A stretch of DNA of 64,000 nt. It comes from Clostridia bacterium (GTDB lineage Bacteria; Bacillota; Clostridia; TANB77; CAG-508). This document shows, piece by piece, positions 7,580 to 38,866 of this stretch. The notes under the pieces were generated by a model. That model was not told where the DNA came from and searched no databases. It saw only the letters and a list, made by a program, of their open reading frames with translations. Position numbers and translations under genes: made by a program. Position 1 is the first letter of the stretch; the number at the start of each line of letters is the position of its first letter. The stretch covers positions 8,084-72,083 of the forward strand of contig JBJFFE010000072.1 in the NCBI GenBank assembly GCA_051891435.1, read 5' to 3'.

Positions 7580-8684
7580 ATGTTAGAATTAGAAGAAAAC
7601 AAACGTAATTTAAATTCTTTAGAAGAAAAAGTAAAAAGTGTAGGTGATTCACTTTGACATTGCTAGTTTAGAAAATAAATTAGTAAGTTTACAAGAAGAA
7701 ACAAATAAACTCGGTTTTTGGGATGACATTAAAAAATCTACTGCAGTTTTATCTGAATTAAAAACAGTCCAAAATAAAGTAAATAAATACAATAAAATAA
7801 AAGAAAATCTTCAAAATTTATTAGATTTAAATGAATTATTAAACCTAGAACAAGATGCAGAATTAGTAAAAGATCTATTAAAAGATACTATAAAATTAGA
7901 AAATGAAGTTGAAAGCTTAGAAATTGAAACTTTATTCTGCGGTAAATATGACAAAAATAATGCGATTTTAACCATTCATCCAGGTGCAGGAGGAACAGAG
8001 TCTCAAGACTGGGCAGAAATGCTATACAGAATGTACTCAAAATGGGCAGCAAGTAATGGATTTGATTTAAAAGAACTAGATTACTTAGAAGGTGACGAAG
8101 CAGGGCTAAAAAGCGTTACATTTTTAATTTCTGGAACAAATGCTTATGGATATTTAAAATCAGAAATGGGAGTACATAGATTAGTTAGAATATCACCTTT
8201 TGACGCTGGTGGAAGAAGGCATACATCATTTGCTTCATTAGAGGTTTTGCCAGAAATAACTGAAGATATTGAAATAGAAATAAACCCAGATGATTTAAGA
8301 GTTGATACATATAGAGCATCCGGAGCAGGAGGGCAACATATAAATAAGACTTCTTCTGCTGTTAGAATAACCCATATTCCTACAAATATTGTAGTAGCTT
8401 GCCAATCTGAGCGTTCTCAAATTCAAAACAGAGAAACAGCAATGAAAATGCTAAAATCTAAACTATTTGAATTAAAAGAGAAAGAGCAAAAGGACAAGAT
8501 AGAGGATTTAAAAGGAACACAAATGGACATTGCTTGGGGAAGCCAAATTCGTTCGTATGTATTTTGCCCCTATACTCTTGTAAAAGACCACAGAACAGGT
8601 TATGAAGTAGGAAATGTGCAAGCAGTAATGGATGGGGACTTAAACGGGTTCATATATGCGTACTTAAGACAAAATTTGACATAA
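7580..8684 (+). CDS. prfB: peptide chain release factor 2, requires programmed +1 frameshift
   Basis: ATG 7580 opens a 25-codon frame (MLELEENKRNLNSLEEKVKSVGDSL) ending at in-frame TGA 7655-7657. The main body is in +1 (ORF-track 7644..8684), with SPF and GGQ motifs (RISPFDAGGRRHTSF, RASGAGGQHINK). Confidence 0.95.
7643..7658 (+). promoter_or_regulatory. prfB autoregulatory +1 frameshift site
   Basis: GGTGAT (SD-like) - TCA - CTT TGA C; same architecture as the canonical AGGGGG-UAU-CUU-UGA-C. Confidence 0.9.
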
Positions 8685-8704
8685 AAAGAAAAAAGTGTTA
8701 TAAT
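8676..8704 (+). promoter_or_regulatory. consensus sigma-A promoter overlapping the prfB stop codon
   Basis: TTGACA (8676-8681), 17-nt spacer, TATAAT (8699-8704), with TG extension at 8696-8697. Confidence 0.75.
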
Positions 8705-8710
8705 AGATTT

Positions 8711-9172
8711 ATGTTAAGCGGAAGCTTCAACAAATTTAACAAGAAAGGATTTGCAATCGATGCTAAATCGGTATCCTACAGGATTTGTCTAGCAAATAGA
8801 CATTCTAGTCACCAGACATGCAAAACTAAGATGTAACGCCATATAAATTGAGGAGAAACAAAACAACAACCCCTCACCGCCCACTAGGCTCATACCACAT
8901 ATGCGCCGCAGAATGCGACGTCAGAGGGATGCCAACAAAGGGCATTGTGCCACAGGGGGACCAAAAATATTCTCTTCAGGGAGGTTAGAGTGAATTATGC
9001 GGTTCACGACAGGTTTTACCTAGTAATCCTAGCAATATTTCTAAACAAAGCAAAGGAGTAACAAAAAATGCGGAGTTTTTCAACTGGTTTCGTCTAGTTA
9101 CTCTAGACAAATCTAAAAAATTCTTGTAAAATGCGCCGGCCCCAGACTGGGACCGGCGTACTTTTTGTCTTT
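8711..9172 (+). ncRNA. candidate ~460-nt structured non-coding RNA of unknown family
   Basis: Bounded by the consensus promoter and a strong intrinsic terminator. No ORF of 60 aa or more on either strand. Locally much more G+C than flanking DNA. Several short hairpins and tandem ~71-nt modules. Confidence 0.6.
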
Positions 9173-9173
9173 T
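9133..9173 (+). terminator. intrinsic terminator of the candidate ncRNA
   Basis: CGCCGG(c)CCC-loop-GGG(a)CCGGCG stem (9134-9158) followed by TACTTTTTGTCTTTT. Confidence 0.8.
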
Positions 9174-9197
9174 ATAAAATTAATATATATAAATTGT

Positions 9198-9275
9198 GTA
9201 GGGGCTGCAGTCCTCGGCAGCCCGTAAGAATGTGAAATATACATTCTGCGGGTCGCCCAGGAGTGCGACCCCTAC
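9198..9275. repeat. GC-rich compound palindromic repeat (three consecutive hairpins), copy 1
   Basis: GTAGGGG...CCCCTAC ends enclose GGGCTGC/GCAGCCC, AGAATGT/ACATTCT and GGGTCGC/GCGACCC hairpins. Reverse complement aligns with 26421-26505. Confidence 0.8.
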
Positions 9276-9376
9276 AATTTTTTTGAAAACAATATATAAT
9301 TAACACATTTTTGTTCTAAACTAGACAAGTTCTGAATATTATATCATATACCAATAAATTAAGGAGTGTTAGATAT

Positions 9377-9673
9377 ATGGTGTATGAAGATAAAAAAACT
9401 ATGACTAGTAATGTTATTCAAAATTTAATATTAGAGAACCGAGAAAAGTTAAATATAACAGGAGTTTTAGATGTATTAAGTTTTGATGACCAAATAGTTA
9501 TAGTTGAAACTGAACTTGGATTACTTACTGTTAAAGGAGATAATTTAAGAATTAATAAATTAAGTACAGATACCGAGGAAGTATGTGTAGAAGGTAATAT
9601 CTTTAATTTATCTTATTCGGAGAAAAGTAACGTAGGTAAAGAAGGCTCGTTCTTTAGTAAGATATTTAAATAA
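9377..9673 (+). CDS. yabP: sporulation protein YabP
   Basis: 98 aa, AAGGAG RBS. Characteristic NREKLNITGV...SFDDQIVIVETELGLLTVKGDNLRINKL pattern, followed by yabQ and divIC as in Bacillus/Clostridium. Confidence 0.85.
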   Translation: MVYEDKKTMTSNVIQNLILENREKLNITGVLDVLSFDDQIVIVETELGLLTVKGDNLRINKLSTDTEEVCVEGNIFNLSYSEKSNVGKEGSFFSKIFK

Positions 9674-9682
9674 GGTGATAAT

Positions 9683-10156
9683 TTGCAAAATCAAATGTAT
9701 GTTTTTATAGCTTTTATATTAAATGGTTTCTTAATAGGCATAATTTTTGATTGTTTTAGAATTTTAAGAAAAAGTTTTAAAACGCCAGATTTCGTTACAT
9801 ATATAGAAGATATTTTATTTGGAATTATTACTGGATTATTAATATTATATTCTATTTTTAAATTCAATCATGGAGAATTAAGATTTTATTTATTTTTAGG
9901 AATATTTATAGGGCTTCTACTATATCTACTTATATTTAGTAAAGTATTTATAAAAATATGCGTATTTATAATTTCTATCATAAAGAAGATAGTTAATTTT
10001 ATGATAATTATACCTATTAAATTTATATGTAAATTATTTAAAAAGATATTTTTTAAACCAATTGTGTTTATCTGTATTAGTTTTAAAAAGGGTTTAAAGA
10101 AAATAAAATTACCGTCATTTAAAATAAAACATAAAAAGGTAAATACACAAGAATAA
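9683..10156 (+). CDS. yabQ: spore cortex biosynthesis protein YabQ
   Basis: Small multi-TM protein immediately after yabP, with the FDCFRILRK motif typical of YabQ. Start codon uncertain (TTG 9683 or ATG 9695). Confidence 0.75.
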   Translation: MQNQMYVFIAFILNGFLIGIIFDCFRILRKSFKTPDFVTYIEDILFGIITGLLILYSIFKFNHGELRFYLFLGIFIGLLLYLLIFSKVFIKICVFIISIIKKIVNFMIIIPIKFICKLFKKIFFKPIVFICISFKKGLKKIKLPSFKIKHKKVNTQE

Positions 10157-12428: not shown

Positions 12429-12516
12429 GCCTATTTCTCCGTATTTGCCATATTTTACTGACAACAAACTATATGCCCTTAAAATAAAAACGGCTTAAAA
12501 TCGATTCTCGTGCGTC
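12429..12516 (+). repeat. ~85-bp direct repeat, copy 1 (left flank of the hydrolase/Fic islet)
   Basis: GCCTATTTC..ACAACAAACT..CTTAAAATCGATTCTCGTGCGTC aligns with 15098-15176. Contains the 12-bp palindrome AAAATCGATTTT (degenerate in this copy). Confidence 0.7.
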
Positions 12517-12664
12517 GTTTTTTTAGCACTTTTTTAGGTATTTTTAATAAACTACAAAATTACTTATATTTAAGTCCTTTTGCAGATTTTTATATTATAT
12601 TTAATATCATTTGTATAATTGTATTATTTTATAATATAAATTTTATATTTGATTTGTAAAATTG

Positions 12665-12685
12665 TTTTAAAATCGATTTTGGTGC
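12665..12685 (+). repeat. short third copy of the TTAAAATCGATTTTGGTGC motif
   Basis: TTTTAAAATCGATTTTGGTGC followed by TTTATAAAAT. Confidence 0.6.
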
Positions 12686-13151
12686 TTTATAAAATATAAA
12701 TATATATTAAGTTTTATACAATTTTATTAATAATAAATTTCTACTCAAATTTTGTTATGAGTTTTAATATAATTAATATTTTTTGAGTTTAATTCTAATT
12801 ATAAAATCATAAATTCTTAAAAATAAATTTTTTAAATTTCTATATAACAAATGTTCGATTTTTAATAATTCTTATAAAGTTAAAACTTTGCACAAAATTC
12901 AAATATAATTTTTTGATTTATAATTATTTAAAAAAATTTTAAAATTATTAATTTAATTTTAGAAATTTTATACTTATCATTTTTTGCAATTTATTATTTT
13001 AAAAAATTTAATTTAACTTTTTATTTATGAATTTTTATTATATTTTATTTTTAATAAATTTGTTAGAATTTTGTATTATTCAAAATATGCTTATTCCCCT
13101 ATTCCCTATTGATTGTTTCTATATATTTCGGAACACATCTTATAGAATAAA

Positions 13152-15097: not shown

Positions 15098-15182
15098 GCC
15101 TATTTCAGCTTATTATTCCAACAACAAACTTGTTAGATAAAATATTAAAATGTCTTAAAATCGATTTTGGTGCGTCTATAAT
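15098..15182 (+). repeat. ~85-bp direct repeat, copy 2 (right flank of the islet), ending in a TATAAT
   Basis: GCCTATTTC..ACAACAAACT..CTTAAAATCGATTTTGGTGCGTC followed immediately by TATAAT (15177-15182). Confidence 0.7.
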
Positions 15183-19740: not shown

Positions 19741-20037
19741 CTATGCAGCTGGTATGTACAATTCTTGATTAATATATAATGTACTATTATTTAATTTATT
19801 TATTTCTTTCAAATCCCCTATTATATATCTAACATCTTTTCCCTCATAATAAGAATTATTTTTTTGTAGATCGATTGCTATACTCCAAAGAGTATCTCCA
19901 GATTTTACATACATTGTTTTGTATTCATGAGTTGTATAAGATAATGTTGATTTAACTATTATTAAAGATAATATAAATGTAACTCCTAATACTATTAGTA
20001 TGCTTCTTATAAATTTTTTTACATTTTTTATTTTCAT
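19741..20037 (-). CDS. small membrane-anchored LysM-domain protein (YneA-like candidate SOS cell-division inhibitor)
   Basis: N-terminal TM helix plus LysM (YVKSGDTLWSIAIDL...INQELYIP). GGAGG RBS. LexA-type box in its promoter. Confidence 0.8.
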   Translation of the reverse strand: MKIKNVKKFIRSILIVLGVTFILSLIIVKSTLSYTTHEYKTMYVKSGDTLWSIAIDLQKNNSYYEGKDVRYIIGDLKEINKLNNSTLYINQELYIPAA

Positions 20038-20052
20038 ATCTATTCCTCCGTA

Positions 20053-20105
20053 CGAACATTTATTTGATATACATATATTATAAACAGTTGTTCGTATTTT
20101 GTCAA
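20053..20105 (-). promoter_or_regulatory. consensus promoter with overlapping LexA (Cheo/SOS) box
   Basis: Minus strand reads TTGACA (20105-20100), 17 nt, TATAAT (20082-20077). CGAACAACTGTTTA (20094-20081) = GAAC-N4-GTTT overlaps the spacer and -10. A second half-site GTTCG lies at 20057-20053. Confidence 0.6.
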
Positions 20106-26417: not shown

Positions 26418-26420
26418 AGC

Positions 26421-26505
26421 GTAGGGGTCGCACTCCAGGGCGACCCGCAAAAGAATCTAAATATTCTATTATTTATTTCGGGTCGCCGAAGACGGCGCAC
26501 CCTAC
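26421..26505. repeat. GC-rich compound palindromic repeat, copy 2 (inverted relative to copy 1)
   Basis: GTAGGGGTCGCACTCCAGGGCGACCCGC...AGAAT/ATTCT...GGGTCGCC..GGCGCACCCTAC. First 28 nt match the reverse complement of 9248-9275 with 2 mismatches. Confidence 0.8.
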
Positions 26506-26519
26506 AAATATTCTGTATT

Positions 26520-38303: not shown

Positions 38304-38729
38304 TTATTCTCCATCAATTGGAATATATTTCTTTTCTGGTAATGCTTTTTGTTCTTCCTTCTTTGGAATTTCTAGTTGTAAAGTTCCGTTTTTTAAAGAT
38401 GCTTTTATATCTTCCTCTTTAATCTCTTCTCCTATATAGAAACTTCTTGAGCATTCACCAAGATATCTTTCTTTACGTACAAATTTTCCTTCCTCTTTTT
38501 CTTCTTTTTGTGAATTTGTTGTAGCATGAACTGTTAAGTAACCATCTTCAATTTCTATTTTGATATTTTCTTTTTCGTAACCAGGTAAATCAATGTTAAC
38601 TAGATATTTGTCTTTCTTCTCTTTAATATCTGTTTTCATTAATTTAGTTTCTCCCTCTGTAAAAAATGGATCTCTAAACATTTCATCCCATAAATCAAAA
38701 TCATTTCTCCTTCTTGGTATCATCATCAT
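38304..38729 (-). CDS. Hsp20/alpha-crystallin family small heat-shock protein
   Basis: 141 aa alpha-crystallin domain (DIKEKKDKYLVNIDLPGYEKENIKIEIEDGYLTV...GTLQLEIPK). Confidence 0.92.
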   Translation of the reverse strand: MMMIPRRRNDFDLWDEMFRDPFFTEGETKLMKTDIKEKKDKYLVNIDLPGYEKENIKIEIEDGYLTVHATTNSQKEEKEEGKFVRKERYLGECSRSFYIGEEIKEEDIKASLKNGTLQLEIPKKEEQKALPEKKYIPIDGE

Positions 38730-38824: not shown

Positions 38825-38866
38825 ATTATACACCTATTTTTAGCAATGTCAATAGGAGAGTGCTAA
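38825..38866 (-). promoter_or_regulatory. hsp20 promoter with overlapping CIRCE-like (HrcA operator) inverted repeat
   Basis: Minus strand reads TTAGCACTC-N9-CATTGCTAA (38866-38840) versus the CIRCE consensus TTAGCACTC-N9-GAGTGCTAA. TTGACA (38852-38847) and TGTATAAT (38832-38825) are embedded in or adjacent to it. Confidence 0.6.

Follow-up and report, generated by a model that had tools for sequence, protein, structure and literature searches.

The stalling leaders and attenuators of the erm, cat, ABC-F, TnaC and SpeFL kinds carry short open reading frames (ORFs) that are led by a Shine-Dalgarno (SD) sequence and conserve their C-terminus and sometimes their stop codon. In attenuators, these ORFs are embedded in alternative hairpins upstream of a terminator and control the gene immediately downstream, and the stalling leader peptides of the erm, cat and ABC-F attenuators have 5-19 residues. 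Dual-function small RNAs (sRNAs) and tandem peptide transcripts, such as RNAIII/hld, SR1/SR1P and the psm-alpha operon, are structured, highly expressed RNAs with small cistrons of 20-45 residues; in the psm-alpha operon, several cistrons for leaderless peptides stand in tandem, and every one has an SD sequence of its own. Functional leaderless peptides of 8-10 residues made from SD-led ultrasmall ORFs also have a precedent, the leaderless communication peptides (LCPs), which are very hydrophobic (e.g. MWLLLLFL) and are encoded by single ORFs beside an RRNPPA receptor (PMC10518010). Here we describe a unit located between prfB, the gene of release factor 2 (RF2), and the sporulation gene yabP in a 64-kb window of contig JBJFFE010000072.1, the window being the whole stretch of DNA that was analysed. 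Its host is an uncultured AT-rich gut Clostridium whose relatives are metagenome-assembled genomes of the "Clostridium sp. CAG:452/508/567/571" kind. Judged from its sequence and from two diverged homologues on contigs L110 and L122, this is a real, strongly promoted, self-contained transcription unit that matches no known RNA family. We tentatively read it, with less than even confidence, as a dual-function polycistronic micro-peptide RNA whose translated mini-cistrons would be its functional core.

An initial annotation, made from the letters of the window, had proposed a self-contained transcription unit at this site, and the strong promoter and terminator bear this out. The promoter that it placed at the prfB stop codon, TTGACA-17-TATAAT with a TG extension, scored 12/12, with the -10 hexamer at 8699-8704 preceded by TGT; the -35 box consists of the last prfB codons (AAT TTG ACA TAA, N-L-T-stop, stop codon at 8682-8684), and transcription is predicted to start at about 8711. 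Promoter elements TTGACATAAAA..17..TG.TATAAT are common to the window, L110 and L122. Perfect promoter matches number three in 64 kb against 0.24 expected; the other two TTGACA-N16-18-TATAAT sites lie on the minus strand, at 20077-20105 upstream of a 98-aa LysM-like ORF (19741-20037) and at 38825-38852 upstream of an Hsp20-like ORF (38304-38729). The GC-rich terminator proposed at 9134-9173 was also recovered, as a hairpin of -20.7 kcal/mol formed by GCGCCGGCCCC/GGGACCGGCG(U) at about 9134-9159 and followed by the U-tract UACUUUUUGUCUUUU; a simple terminator scanner missed this hairpin because of a bulge. In all three copies AAUCUUGUAA stands directly 5' of the terminator and the last mini-ORF ends 19-34 nt before it, and the terminator stems themselves are unrelated in sequence, with energies of -20.7 to about -25 kcal/mol. 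An sRNA gene is marked by a promoter and a terminator of its own and by the lack of a long ORF; these features are present in the window and kept in L110 and L122.

The stretch of about 690 bp that had been said to lack any ORF of 60 aa or more has a longest ORF of 46 aa on either strand (8685-9376), and the richness in G+C seen against its surroundings is the maximum of the 64-kb window (0.48 in the 200-nt window from 8811; mean 0.265, standard deviation 0.051), with 0.52 in the core at 8860-9010. Compared with shuffled sequences, the transcript folds with z -3.95 on the plus strand and -3.10 on the minus strand, and the core alone with z -2.69; the local helices pointed out at 8787-8801, 8929-8945 and 9092-9108 have energies of -7.2 to -10.2 kcal/mol. 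No Rfam family reached its gathering score anywhere in the window, scans of 951 nt and 431 nt at E<=10 yielded no credible match, no Rfam family matched L110 or L122, and ARAGORN found no tRNA or transfer-messenger RNA (tmRNA). Consistent with the lack of hallmarks noted earlier, neither Rfam models nor ARAGORN gave a match to RNase P RNA, tmRNA, 6S RNA, signal recognition particle RNA, riboswitches or T-box. Weak matches to L20_leader and MIR851 reflect only the shapes of the terminator and of a neighbouring hairpin of the repetitive extragenic palindrome (REP) type. A likeness to RNase P RNA, seen in the strings GAGGA.AA, GUGCCACAG and CACGACAG standing in the right order, was rejected, as it has no covariance-model support at E<=10.

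The description of the unit as non-coding probably does not hold in full: its best-conserved features are seven SD-led mini-ORFs with codon-periodic conservation, three in the window (modules A, B and C; Table 1) and two each in L110 and L122. They have 7-10 codons, the spacing between SD sequence and AUG is 8-12 nt in all seven, and every one of them ends in [T/S/V]-G-F-[V/T]-UAG. Module A corresponds to MLMRYPVGFV-UAG in L110 and MRYPTEIQF-UGA in L122, while modules B and C have a single counterpart in L110 (MRFTSGFV-UAG) and two in L122 (MLRYTSGFV-UAG and MWFSGFT-UAG). The block CUCUUCAGGGAGGUU(A)GAGUGAAnUAUGCGGUUCAC of module B is nearly identical in L110 and recognisable in L122. Pairwise similarity of the modules has P values of 0.001-0.02, and inter-module indels are multiples of 3. 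All four types of Gly codon are used in the seven tails (GGA, GGT, GGT, GGA, GGC, GGG and GGT); Phe is TTT or TTC, Ser AGC and TCA, and Val GTC or GTT, and the Arg codon of module A is CGG in the window versus AGA in L122. Positions 1 and 2 of the tail Gly and Phe codons are invariant and the third position is variable. The stop codon is UAG in 7/7 mini-ORFs, whereas the genes of the window use UAA in 73% and UAG in 13.5% of cases, and it lies within or beside a hairpin in five of the seven; the module A hairpin, GUCUA-GCAAA-UAGAC, contains it. This is how translated sequence would be expected to vary under purifying selection, with the stop codon additionally constrained. Two short words are also in excess in the 502-nt segment: ATGCG (8901, 8913, 8997, 9068 and 9131) occurs five times against 0.3 expected, which makes 5 of the 13 plus-strand occurrences in 64 kb, and CTAG occurs seven times where 1.4-1.7 would be expected. 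These excesses are due in part, but not wholly, to the repetition of modules (two of the ATGCG are mini-ORF starts).

Table 1. Predicted features of the prfB-yabP unit and its neighbour (window positions)
Feature	Positions	Strand	Basis or detail
Sigma-A-type promoter	8676-8704	+	-35 TTGACA 8676-8681, 17-nt spacer, TG-extended -10 TGTTATAAT 8696-8704
Segment present or absent among same-species strains, 502 nt	8687-9188	+	Empty sites, TTGACATAAAA joined to TAAATTGT
Predicted transcript, ~460 nt	8711-9173	+	Positions of promoter and terminator
5'-terminal hairpin GUUAAGC-GGAA-GCUU(C)AAC, GNRA loop	8712-8732	+	Fold, homologue comparison
Closing helix P1, 5' strand ACAAGA (partner UCUUGU 9122-9127)	8739-8744	+	Folds of three homologues
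Module A: SD AAAGGA 8744-8749, mini-ORF 8760-8792 MLNRYPTGFV-UAG, hairpin 8787-8801	8744-8801	+	Folds, homologue comparison
Helix P3, 5' strand UGAGGAGAA, pairs with UUCUCUUCA 8970-8978, encloses GC-rich core	8849-8857	+	Fold
GC-rich core domain, helix P4 CCCCU 8870-8874 / AGGGG 8954-8958	8870-8958	+	Fold, MAFFT alignment A3
Module B: SD GGGAGG 8979-8984, mini-ORF 8997-9023 MRFTTGFT-UAG, weak hairpin	8979-9033	+	Homologue comparison
Module C: SD AAAGGAG 9052-9058, mini-ORF 9068-9097 MRSFSTGFV-UAG, hairpin GGUUUCGUCUAG-UUACU-CUAGACAAAUC 9086-9113	9052-9113	+	Homologue comparison
Alternative long-range helix P2, 3' strand; 11-nt perfect complement to 8782-8792 (end of mini-ORF A)	9103-9113	+	Fold
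Conserved (A)AUCUUGUAA (P1 3' strand), then intrinsic terminator hairpin and U-tract	9121-9173	+	Fold, homologue comparison
REP-like GC-rich palindrome (neighbour, not part of the unit)	9197-9277		Second copy 26420-26506

Structural conservation is confined to parts of the RNA. The 5' hairpin keeps its GNRA loop with three different sequences (GGAA in the window, GAGA in L110 and GAAA in L122), and its pair G8713-C8731 becomes A-U in L122, as read by eye from alignment A4 against the folds rather than counted by a tool. The strands of P1 are invariant in the three copies, and the helix is predicted independently in all three minimum-free-energy folds; it shows no covariation because its sequence does not vary. 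In L110, helix P3 persists without covariation and with a single pair broken; L122 has no recognisable counterpart. In the core, which also contains internal hairpins at 8903-8921 and 8928-8946, helix P4 reads GGGUU/AACCC in L110, so that in the unfitted MAFFT alignment A3 all five pairs are kept and four of the five are changed on both sides; at the P4 site of L122 we find GGCC/GGUC, displaced by 2-3 columns. Coming from two or three sequences, these compensatory changes are suggestive and statistically not strong. The interior of the core is not alignable between homologues, and the middle of L122 folds differently. Helix P2 is present in the minimum-free-energy fold and retained in L110 with a change of G-C to G-U; mini-ORF A can pair through its end with the 3' arm of the last module hairpin, giving two mutually exclusive folds, and this is also the case in L110.

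The unit is distributed patchily. Two contigs of the same species (L083 and L108) lack exactly 8687-9188, and an independent assembly of the same sample (L090, Logan SRR30616764) is 100% identical over 5862 nt including the unit. Across the empty site, L083 is 95.7% identical to the window on the prfB side (1-232 versus 8455-8686) and 100% identical on the yabP side (232-762 versus 9189-9719), which suggests a recombination breakpoint at the variable site. Searches with nhmmer at the yabP locus of 80 related species-level genomes found no trace of the unit, and in the nearest relatives the prfB-yabP gap is only 88-105 nt. No match was obtained in BLAST searches against phages and plasmids, in pattern scans of viral and metagenome contigs, in exact ORF look-ups or in a six-frame peptide search. 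The earlier working conclusion from these empty searches, a singleton insertion of foreign DNA, was overturned by L110 and L122. An exhaustive phmmer search with the 41-codon ORF from the predicted transcription start matched a called protein of 41 aa (P0245, E 6e-4), whose contig L110 contains a diverged copy of the entire unit (nhmmer E 4e-34) flanked by the ORF end ...YLKKKLT-TAA and the conserved yabP upstream box. L122, the third long form, was found via a look-up of a YabP variant (E 7e-10 versus the window and 4e-12 versus L110). The prfB-unit-yabP arrangement, for which a synteny check had been proposed, therefore recurs in two further lineages and is absent from the locus in the 80 genomes; likewise, the anticipated conservation and covariation in relatives exist to the extent of two homologues and some covariation, but are not broad, the unit being absent from most same-species contigs.

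Other alleles of the site were read from further contigs. The species with YabP variant P0019 is polymorphic there: L122 carries the long form, L118, L119 and L124 have a short form of ~190 nt with the same promoter and 5' hairpin and different content, and L117, L120 and L123 contain only the last ~45 nt of the L122 unit (P1 3' strand and terminator), as deletion remnants. In three other species, with YabP variants P0033, P0045 and P0007, the unit is absent from all contigs read, and the L004 species has a uniform short prfB-yabP gap of ~190 nt, with a different small unit in L004 itself. The short unit, at 1255-1432 of L118 and likewise in L119 and L124, takes its -35 box from TTGAC within the prfB ...NLT codons, and so does the unit of L004; it continues with a 5' hairpin GUUAAG..CUUAAC and SD-AUGUCC, both shared with L122, and the rest of its content is unrelated. 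The L004 unit (~2160-2300; L144-L149) comprises ~85 nt, including AUG-UUA-AUC-UUG-UUU-UUG-UUA-UAA (MLILFLL), and its terminator resembles that of L118. A search of prfB C-terminal fragments for more alleles gave none that ends in ...LT. Positions 1-45 of L110, 5' of the last ~11 prfB-like codons (…FYTIYLKKKLT-TAA), do not read as RF2 and could represent a truncated prfB end, a rearrangement, or errors of a contig with 3x coverage. The long forms (window 8676-9176, L110 71-470, L122 115-596) are 52-59% identical overall, and their prfB/yabP flanks 84%. Because presence and absence vary within species and deletion remnants exist, the unit is evidently an old, dispensable element of the prfB-yabP locus that is often lost.

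We take the unit to be a dispensable RNA gene bound to this one site in a clade of uncultured, AT-rich gut Clostridia, carried by some strains and deleted or replaced in most. In the micro-peptide reading that we favour, the consensus sigma-A promoter, with its -35 box borrowed from the last prfB codons, would produce an RNA of ~370-460 nt. This RNA would be strongly expressed; the GNRA-capped hairpin would probably shield its 5' end, the ACAAGA/UCUUGU helix would join the 5' and 3' regions and thereby close the molecule, the fast-evolving GC-rich core would be secured by the covarying helix, and the strong intrinsic terminator would define the end. Ribosomes would load at two or three good SD sites and translate cistrons of 7-10 codons, of which the conserved part would be the C-terminal [T/S]-G-F-[V/T] with its UAG in or next to a hairpin. 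The products would be leaderless peptides of 7-10 residues, with the RNA structure setting translation and RNA stability. Transcription, translation and any activity of the peptides are inferred. Retention of the promoter, the 5' hairpin, the P1 strands, the SD sites and the mini-ORFs despite 52-59% identity supports this reading.

Several observations weigh against it. Whereas known LCPs are strongly hydrophobic, these peptides are not and include Arg, Thr, Ser and Gly; the unit has no receptor or exporter gene next to it, and no RopB/Rgg-type (RRNPPA) gene is found among the neighbours. A function of the peptide alone would require neither the invariant UAG nor the stop-codon hairpins, both of which suggest a role for termination itself or for the structure of the RNA. 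Most strains do without the unit, and module A of L122, with its degenerate MRYPTEIQF-UGA, has lost the GFV tail. Moreover, being paralogous or orthologous to each other, the seven mini-ORFs do not amount to seven independent samples, and the homologue sample consists of three, of which L110 is a 533-nt contig at 3x coverage.

A possible but less probable explanation is that the unit acts as an attenuator or as a riboregulator tied to translation termination, in which the mini-ORFs would serve as sensors without a useful product. Ribosomes would reach or stall at the UAG, specific to release factor 1 (RF1), after [ST]GF[VT] and melt the stop-codon hairpins, and the RNA would toggle between local hairpins and P2/P1, which would affect the stability of the RNA, termination at the terminator downstream (with read-through in the direction of yabP) or what becomes of the prfB 3' end. 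The joint conservation of C-terminal residues and stop-codon identity is in its favour, as are the hairpins at 5/7 stop codons, the perfect complementarity between the last hairpin's 3' arm and the end of mini-ORF A, with two exclusive folds that L110 retains, the terminator 19-34 nt after the last mini-ORF and the adjacent RF2 gene. However, no regulated gene follows: the unit is succeeded by the REP-like element (in the window only) and then by an apparent promoter box of yabP's own; an anti-terminator pairing was looked for and not found, there are two or three ORF copies rather than one, and the unit is dispensable and patchy. In a more specific form, which we regard as quite unlikely, the tail [S/T]-G-F-[V/T] with UAG would make ribosomes dwell and the RNA refold to its long-range helices, so that a termination sensor next to the RF2 gene would couple RF1 activity, or a small molecule or antibiotic targeting termination, to the prfB 3' region or to read-through into yabP-yabQ-divIC, an operon of sporulation and division. 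A purely structural non-coding RNA, the idea of the initial annotation, here as a new class with the mini-ORFs as by-products of repeated hairpin modules, seems unlikely. It would account for the GC maximum of the window, the folding scores of the whole transcript (z -3.95) and of the core (z -2.69), the four compensatory pairs in P4 and the presence of the GNRA hairpin and P1 in all three homologues; yet the core is not alignable between homologues, the middle of L122 folds differently, and an RNA motif would not be expected to show codon-periodic variation, properly spaced SD sites or indels that keep the frame. There is, in addition, no Rfam match, and most relatives lack the unit.

The variable presence within species, the remnants in L117, L120 and L123 that retain the last ~45 nt of the L122 unit, the faster evolution of the unit compared with its flanks and the other, shorter units at the same site in L118 and L004 would fit a decaying, functionless relic, left by a former gene cassette or by foreign DNA acquired through illegitimate recombination. 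We hold this decidedly unlikely, since at 52-59% identity all three copies retain a 12/12 TG promoter, strong SD sites and intact mini-ORFs that differ synonymously, and each has a strong terminator on a rebuilt stem of its own; retention of promoter, SD sites, ORFs and terminator after such divergence is a signature of purifying selection. A conventional small protein or type I toxin is highly improbable. Its candidates are a 41-aa ORF (8711-8836), whose AUG at 8711 coincides with the predicted transcription start and which has 41-codon counterparts at the same position in L110 and L118, and a 23-aa hydrophobic peptide (GUG 8990). The former is largely refuted by a 2-nt indel between the window and L110 that shifts the frame after residue 29 and by the change of AUG to AUA in L122; the frame of the latter is not kept in L110 or L122, no antisense promoter was found at the unit, and no protein family or homologue was found except the homologue at the nucleotide level. 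Equally improbable is a mobile element, such as a miniature inverted-repeat transposable element or a guide-RNA-bearing mini-element of the IS110 or IS200/605 type, or an assembly artefact. The clean 502-nt indel without a long ORF beside a REP element suggests mobility, and the -10 box lies 12 nt from the left junction, much like the circle-junction promoters of IS110 and IS911. However, there is no target-site duplication, only an A-rich pseudo-inverted repeat (AAAAGAAAAAAGT/ACTTTTTGTCTTTT) that is within chance, no second copy occurs in 64 kb or in 150 loci away from the site, and complementarity of the interior to the target or to a circle junction, as in an IS110-type bridge RNA, is within chance (P 0.43). 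The homologues also sit at the same locus, with their own -35 box, and the Logan assembly L090 reproduces the sequence, though from the same sample. Three further ideas were rejected: antisense action in trans on a target in the window (the matches were all AT-rich and due to chance), a CsrA-type GGA sponge (ten GGA in the insert versus roughly six expected by a rough estimate, hence not enriched), and derivation of the GC-rich core from the neighbouring REP element with its GTAGGGG...CCCCTAC palindrome (alignment no better than shuffles).

A related module may occur elsewhere. A motif scan identified L097, a 2.4-kb metagenome contig with yidC, an intergenic region and a tRNA, in which ~1540-1735 of the minus strand carry 2.5 tandem copies of GGTTATCCACAGGATTTGTCTAG-AGTACT-CTAGACAAATCT. 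Its arms are identical to two that the window carries 310 nt from each other (8770-8792 and 9103-9114), and one copy reads MHKVNRLSTGFV-UAG with the same GAUUUGUCUAG/CUAGACAAAUC hairpin. In these copies a perfect DnaA-box string, TTATCCACA, is joined to the hairpin GATTTGTCTAG-AGTACT-CTAGACAAATC, after which comes a T run. The identity beyond the searched pattern amounts to about 14 bits by our estimate; homology to the unit is plausible, with convergence as the alternative, and the presence of the module in an unrelated metagenomic bacterium hints at a module that is wider than the prfB-yabP locus.

The unit is surrounded by secA, a DsbD-like gene, a thioredoxin gene and prfB on one side and by yabP, yabQ, divIC and rho on the other, with genes for a hydrolase, a Fic/RhuM protein and a histidine kinase farther downstream. 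The prfB gene starts with AUG at 7581 and contains the programmed +1 frameshift site of RF2, AGGTGAT TCA CTT TGA C (7581-7657), because of which the ORF finder lists only the downstream frame of 346 aa (7644-8684). The remark that the unit's own terminator and a repeat element separate it from yabP proved correct, the latter being the REP-like palindrome at 9197-9277, and the unit is not positioned as a simple cis-leader. The REP-like element is not significantly similar to the unit; the empty sites L083 and L108 contain it, and L110 and L122 do not. It belongs to a family (GTAGGGG-hairpin ... hairpin-CCCCTAC) of this AT-rich lineage, with further members in the hairpin at 2736-2761 and in L002 and a half copy in L108; it breaks assemblies, as Logan contigs L081, L082, L087 and L089 begin inside it (9246-9249). 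Upstream of yabP lies the box TTGTTCTAAACTAGACAAGTyCTGAATATTATATC (9300-9345, 30-70 nt before yabP), strongly conserved in all relatives (L001-L004, L110, L117-L122) and probably a sporulation promoter or operator of yabP; it contains CTAGACAAG, resembling the module arm CTAGACAAATC. Finally, a repeat of ~36 nt, CTTAAAATCGATTnTnGTGC, occurs at 12481-12516, 12653-12688 and 15141-15176, two of its copies being within an AT-rich gap of 1.1 kb that follows rho.

If the mini-cistrons are translated, the unit would represent a new bacterial RNA family that combines a structured scaffold with tandem ORFs of 7-10 codons under selection at the peptide level, hosted by abundant, uncultured gut Clostridia. 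It could prove to define a class of leaderless micro-peptides that is invisible to standard gene callers, or else a switch next to the RF2 gene that is governed by termination at a stop codon read only by RF1. Synteny searches of 80 species representatives missed the unit, which was found via a spurious 41-codon ORF call over a homologue; patchy RNA genes of this kind are thus easily taken for strain-specific junk.

Comparison with known systems places the unit between several of them. Like OLE, ROOL, GOLLD and raiA (PMC12286853, PMC5737381, PMC12968392), the large RNAs whose range it had been placed in initially, it is a GC-rich island of a few hundred nucleotides with its own promoter and terminator in an AT-rich Firmicute, and it shares a patchy distribution with ROOL and GOLLD. 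It is not OLE, ROOL, GOLLD or raiA: no covariance model of these matched at E<=10, its core is unconserved in sequence and fold, its conserved parts are the mini-ORFs, and the multi-helix architecture that those RNAs maintain across many species was not found among the three homologues. Like RNAIII/hld, SR1/SR1P and the psm-alpha operon, the unit would be a structured, highly expressed RNA with small cistrons; it differs from them in the size of its predicted peptides, 7-10 residues, and has no sequence similarity to them. Like stalling leaders and attenuators, it has SD-led ORFs with a conserved C-terminus and stop codon, set in predicted alternative hairpins upstream of a terminator; stop-codon hairpins and the helix P2 are among its predicted structures, and it departs from them in that only the terminator and the next gene's promoter follow, that the ORF is present in several copies and that no anti-terminator was found. 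Unlike LCPs, its peptides (MLNRYPTGFV, MRFTTGFT, MRSFSTGFV, MRFTSGFV, MLRYTSGFV and MWFSGFT) have Arg, Thr, Ser and Gly among their residues, two or three peptides are encoded in tandem on a long structured RNA with no adjacent receptor gene, and the UAG stop and the stop-codon hairpins are conserved. What the unit shares with the SIP/LCP systems and their RopB-type receptors is the set of ORFs of ~8-10 codons, each with an SD sequence and without a signal or leader, the variation between strains and the occurrence in Firmicutes.

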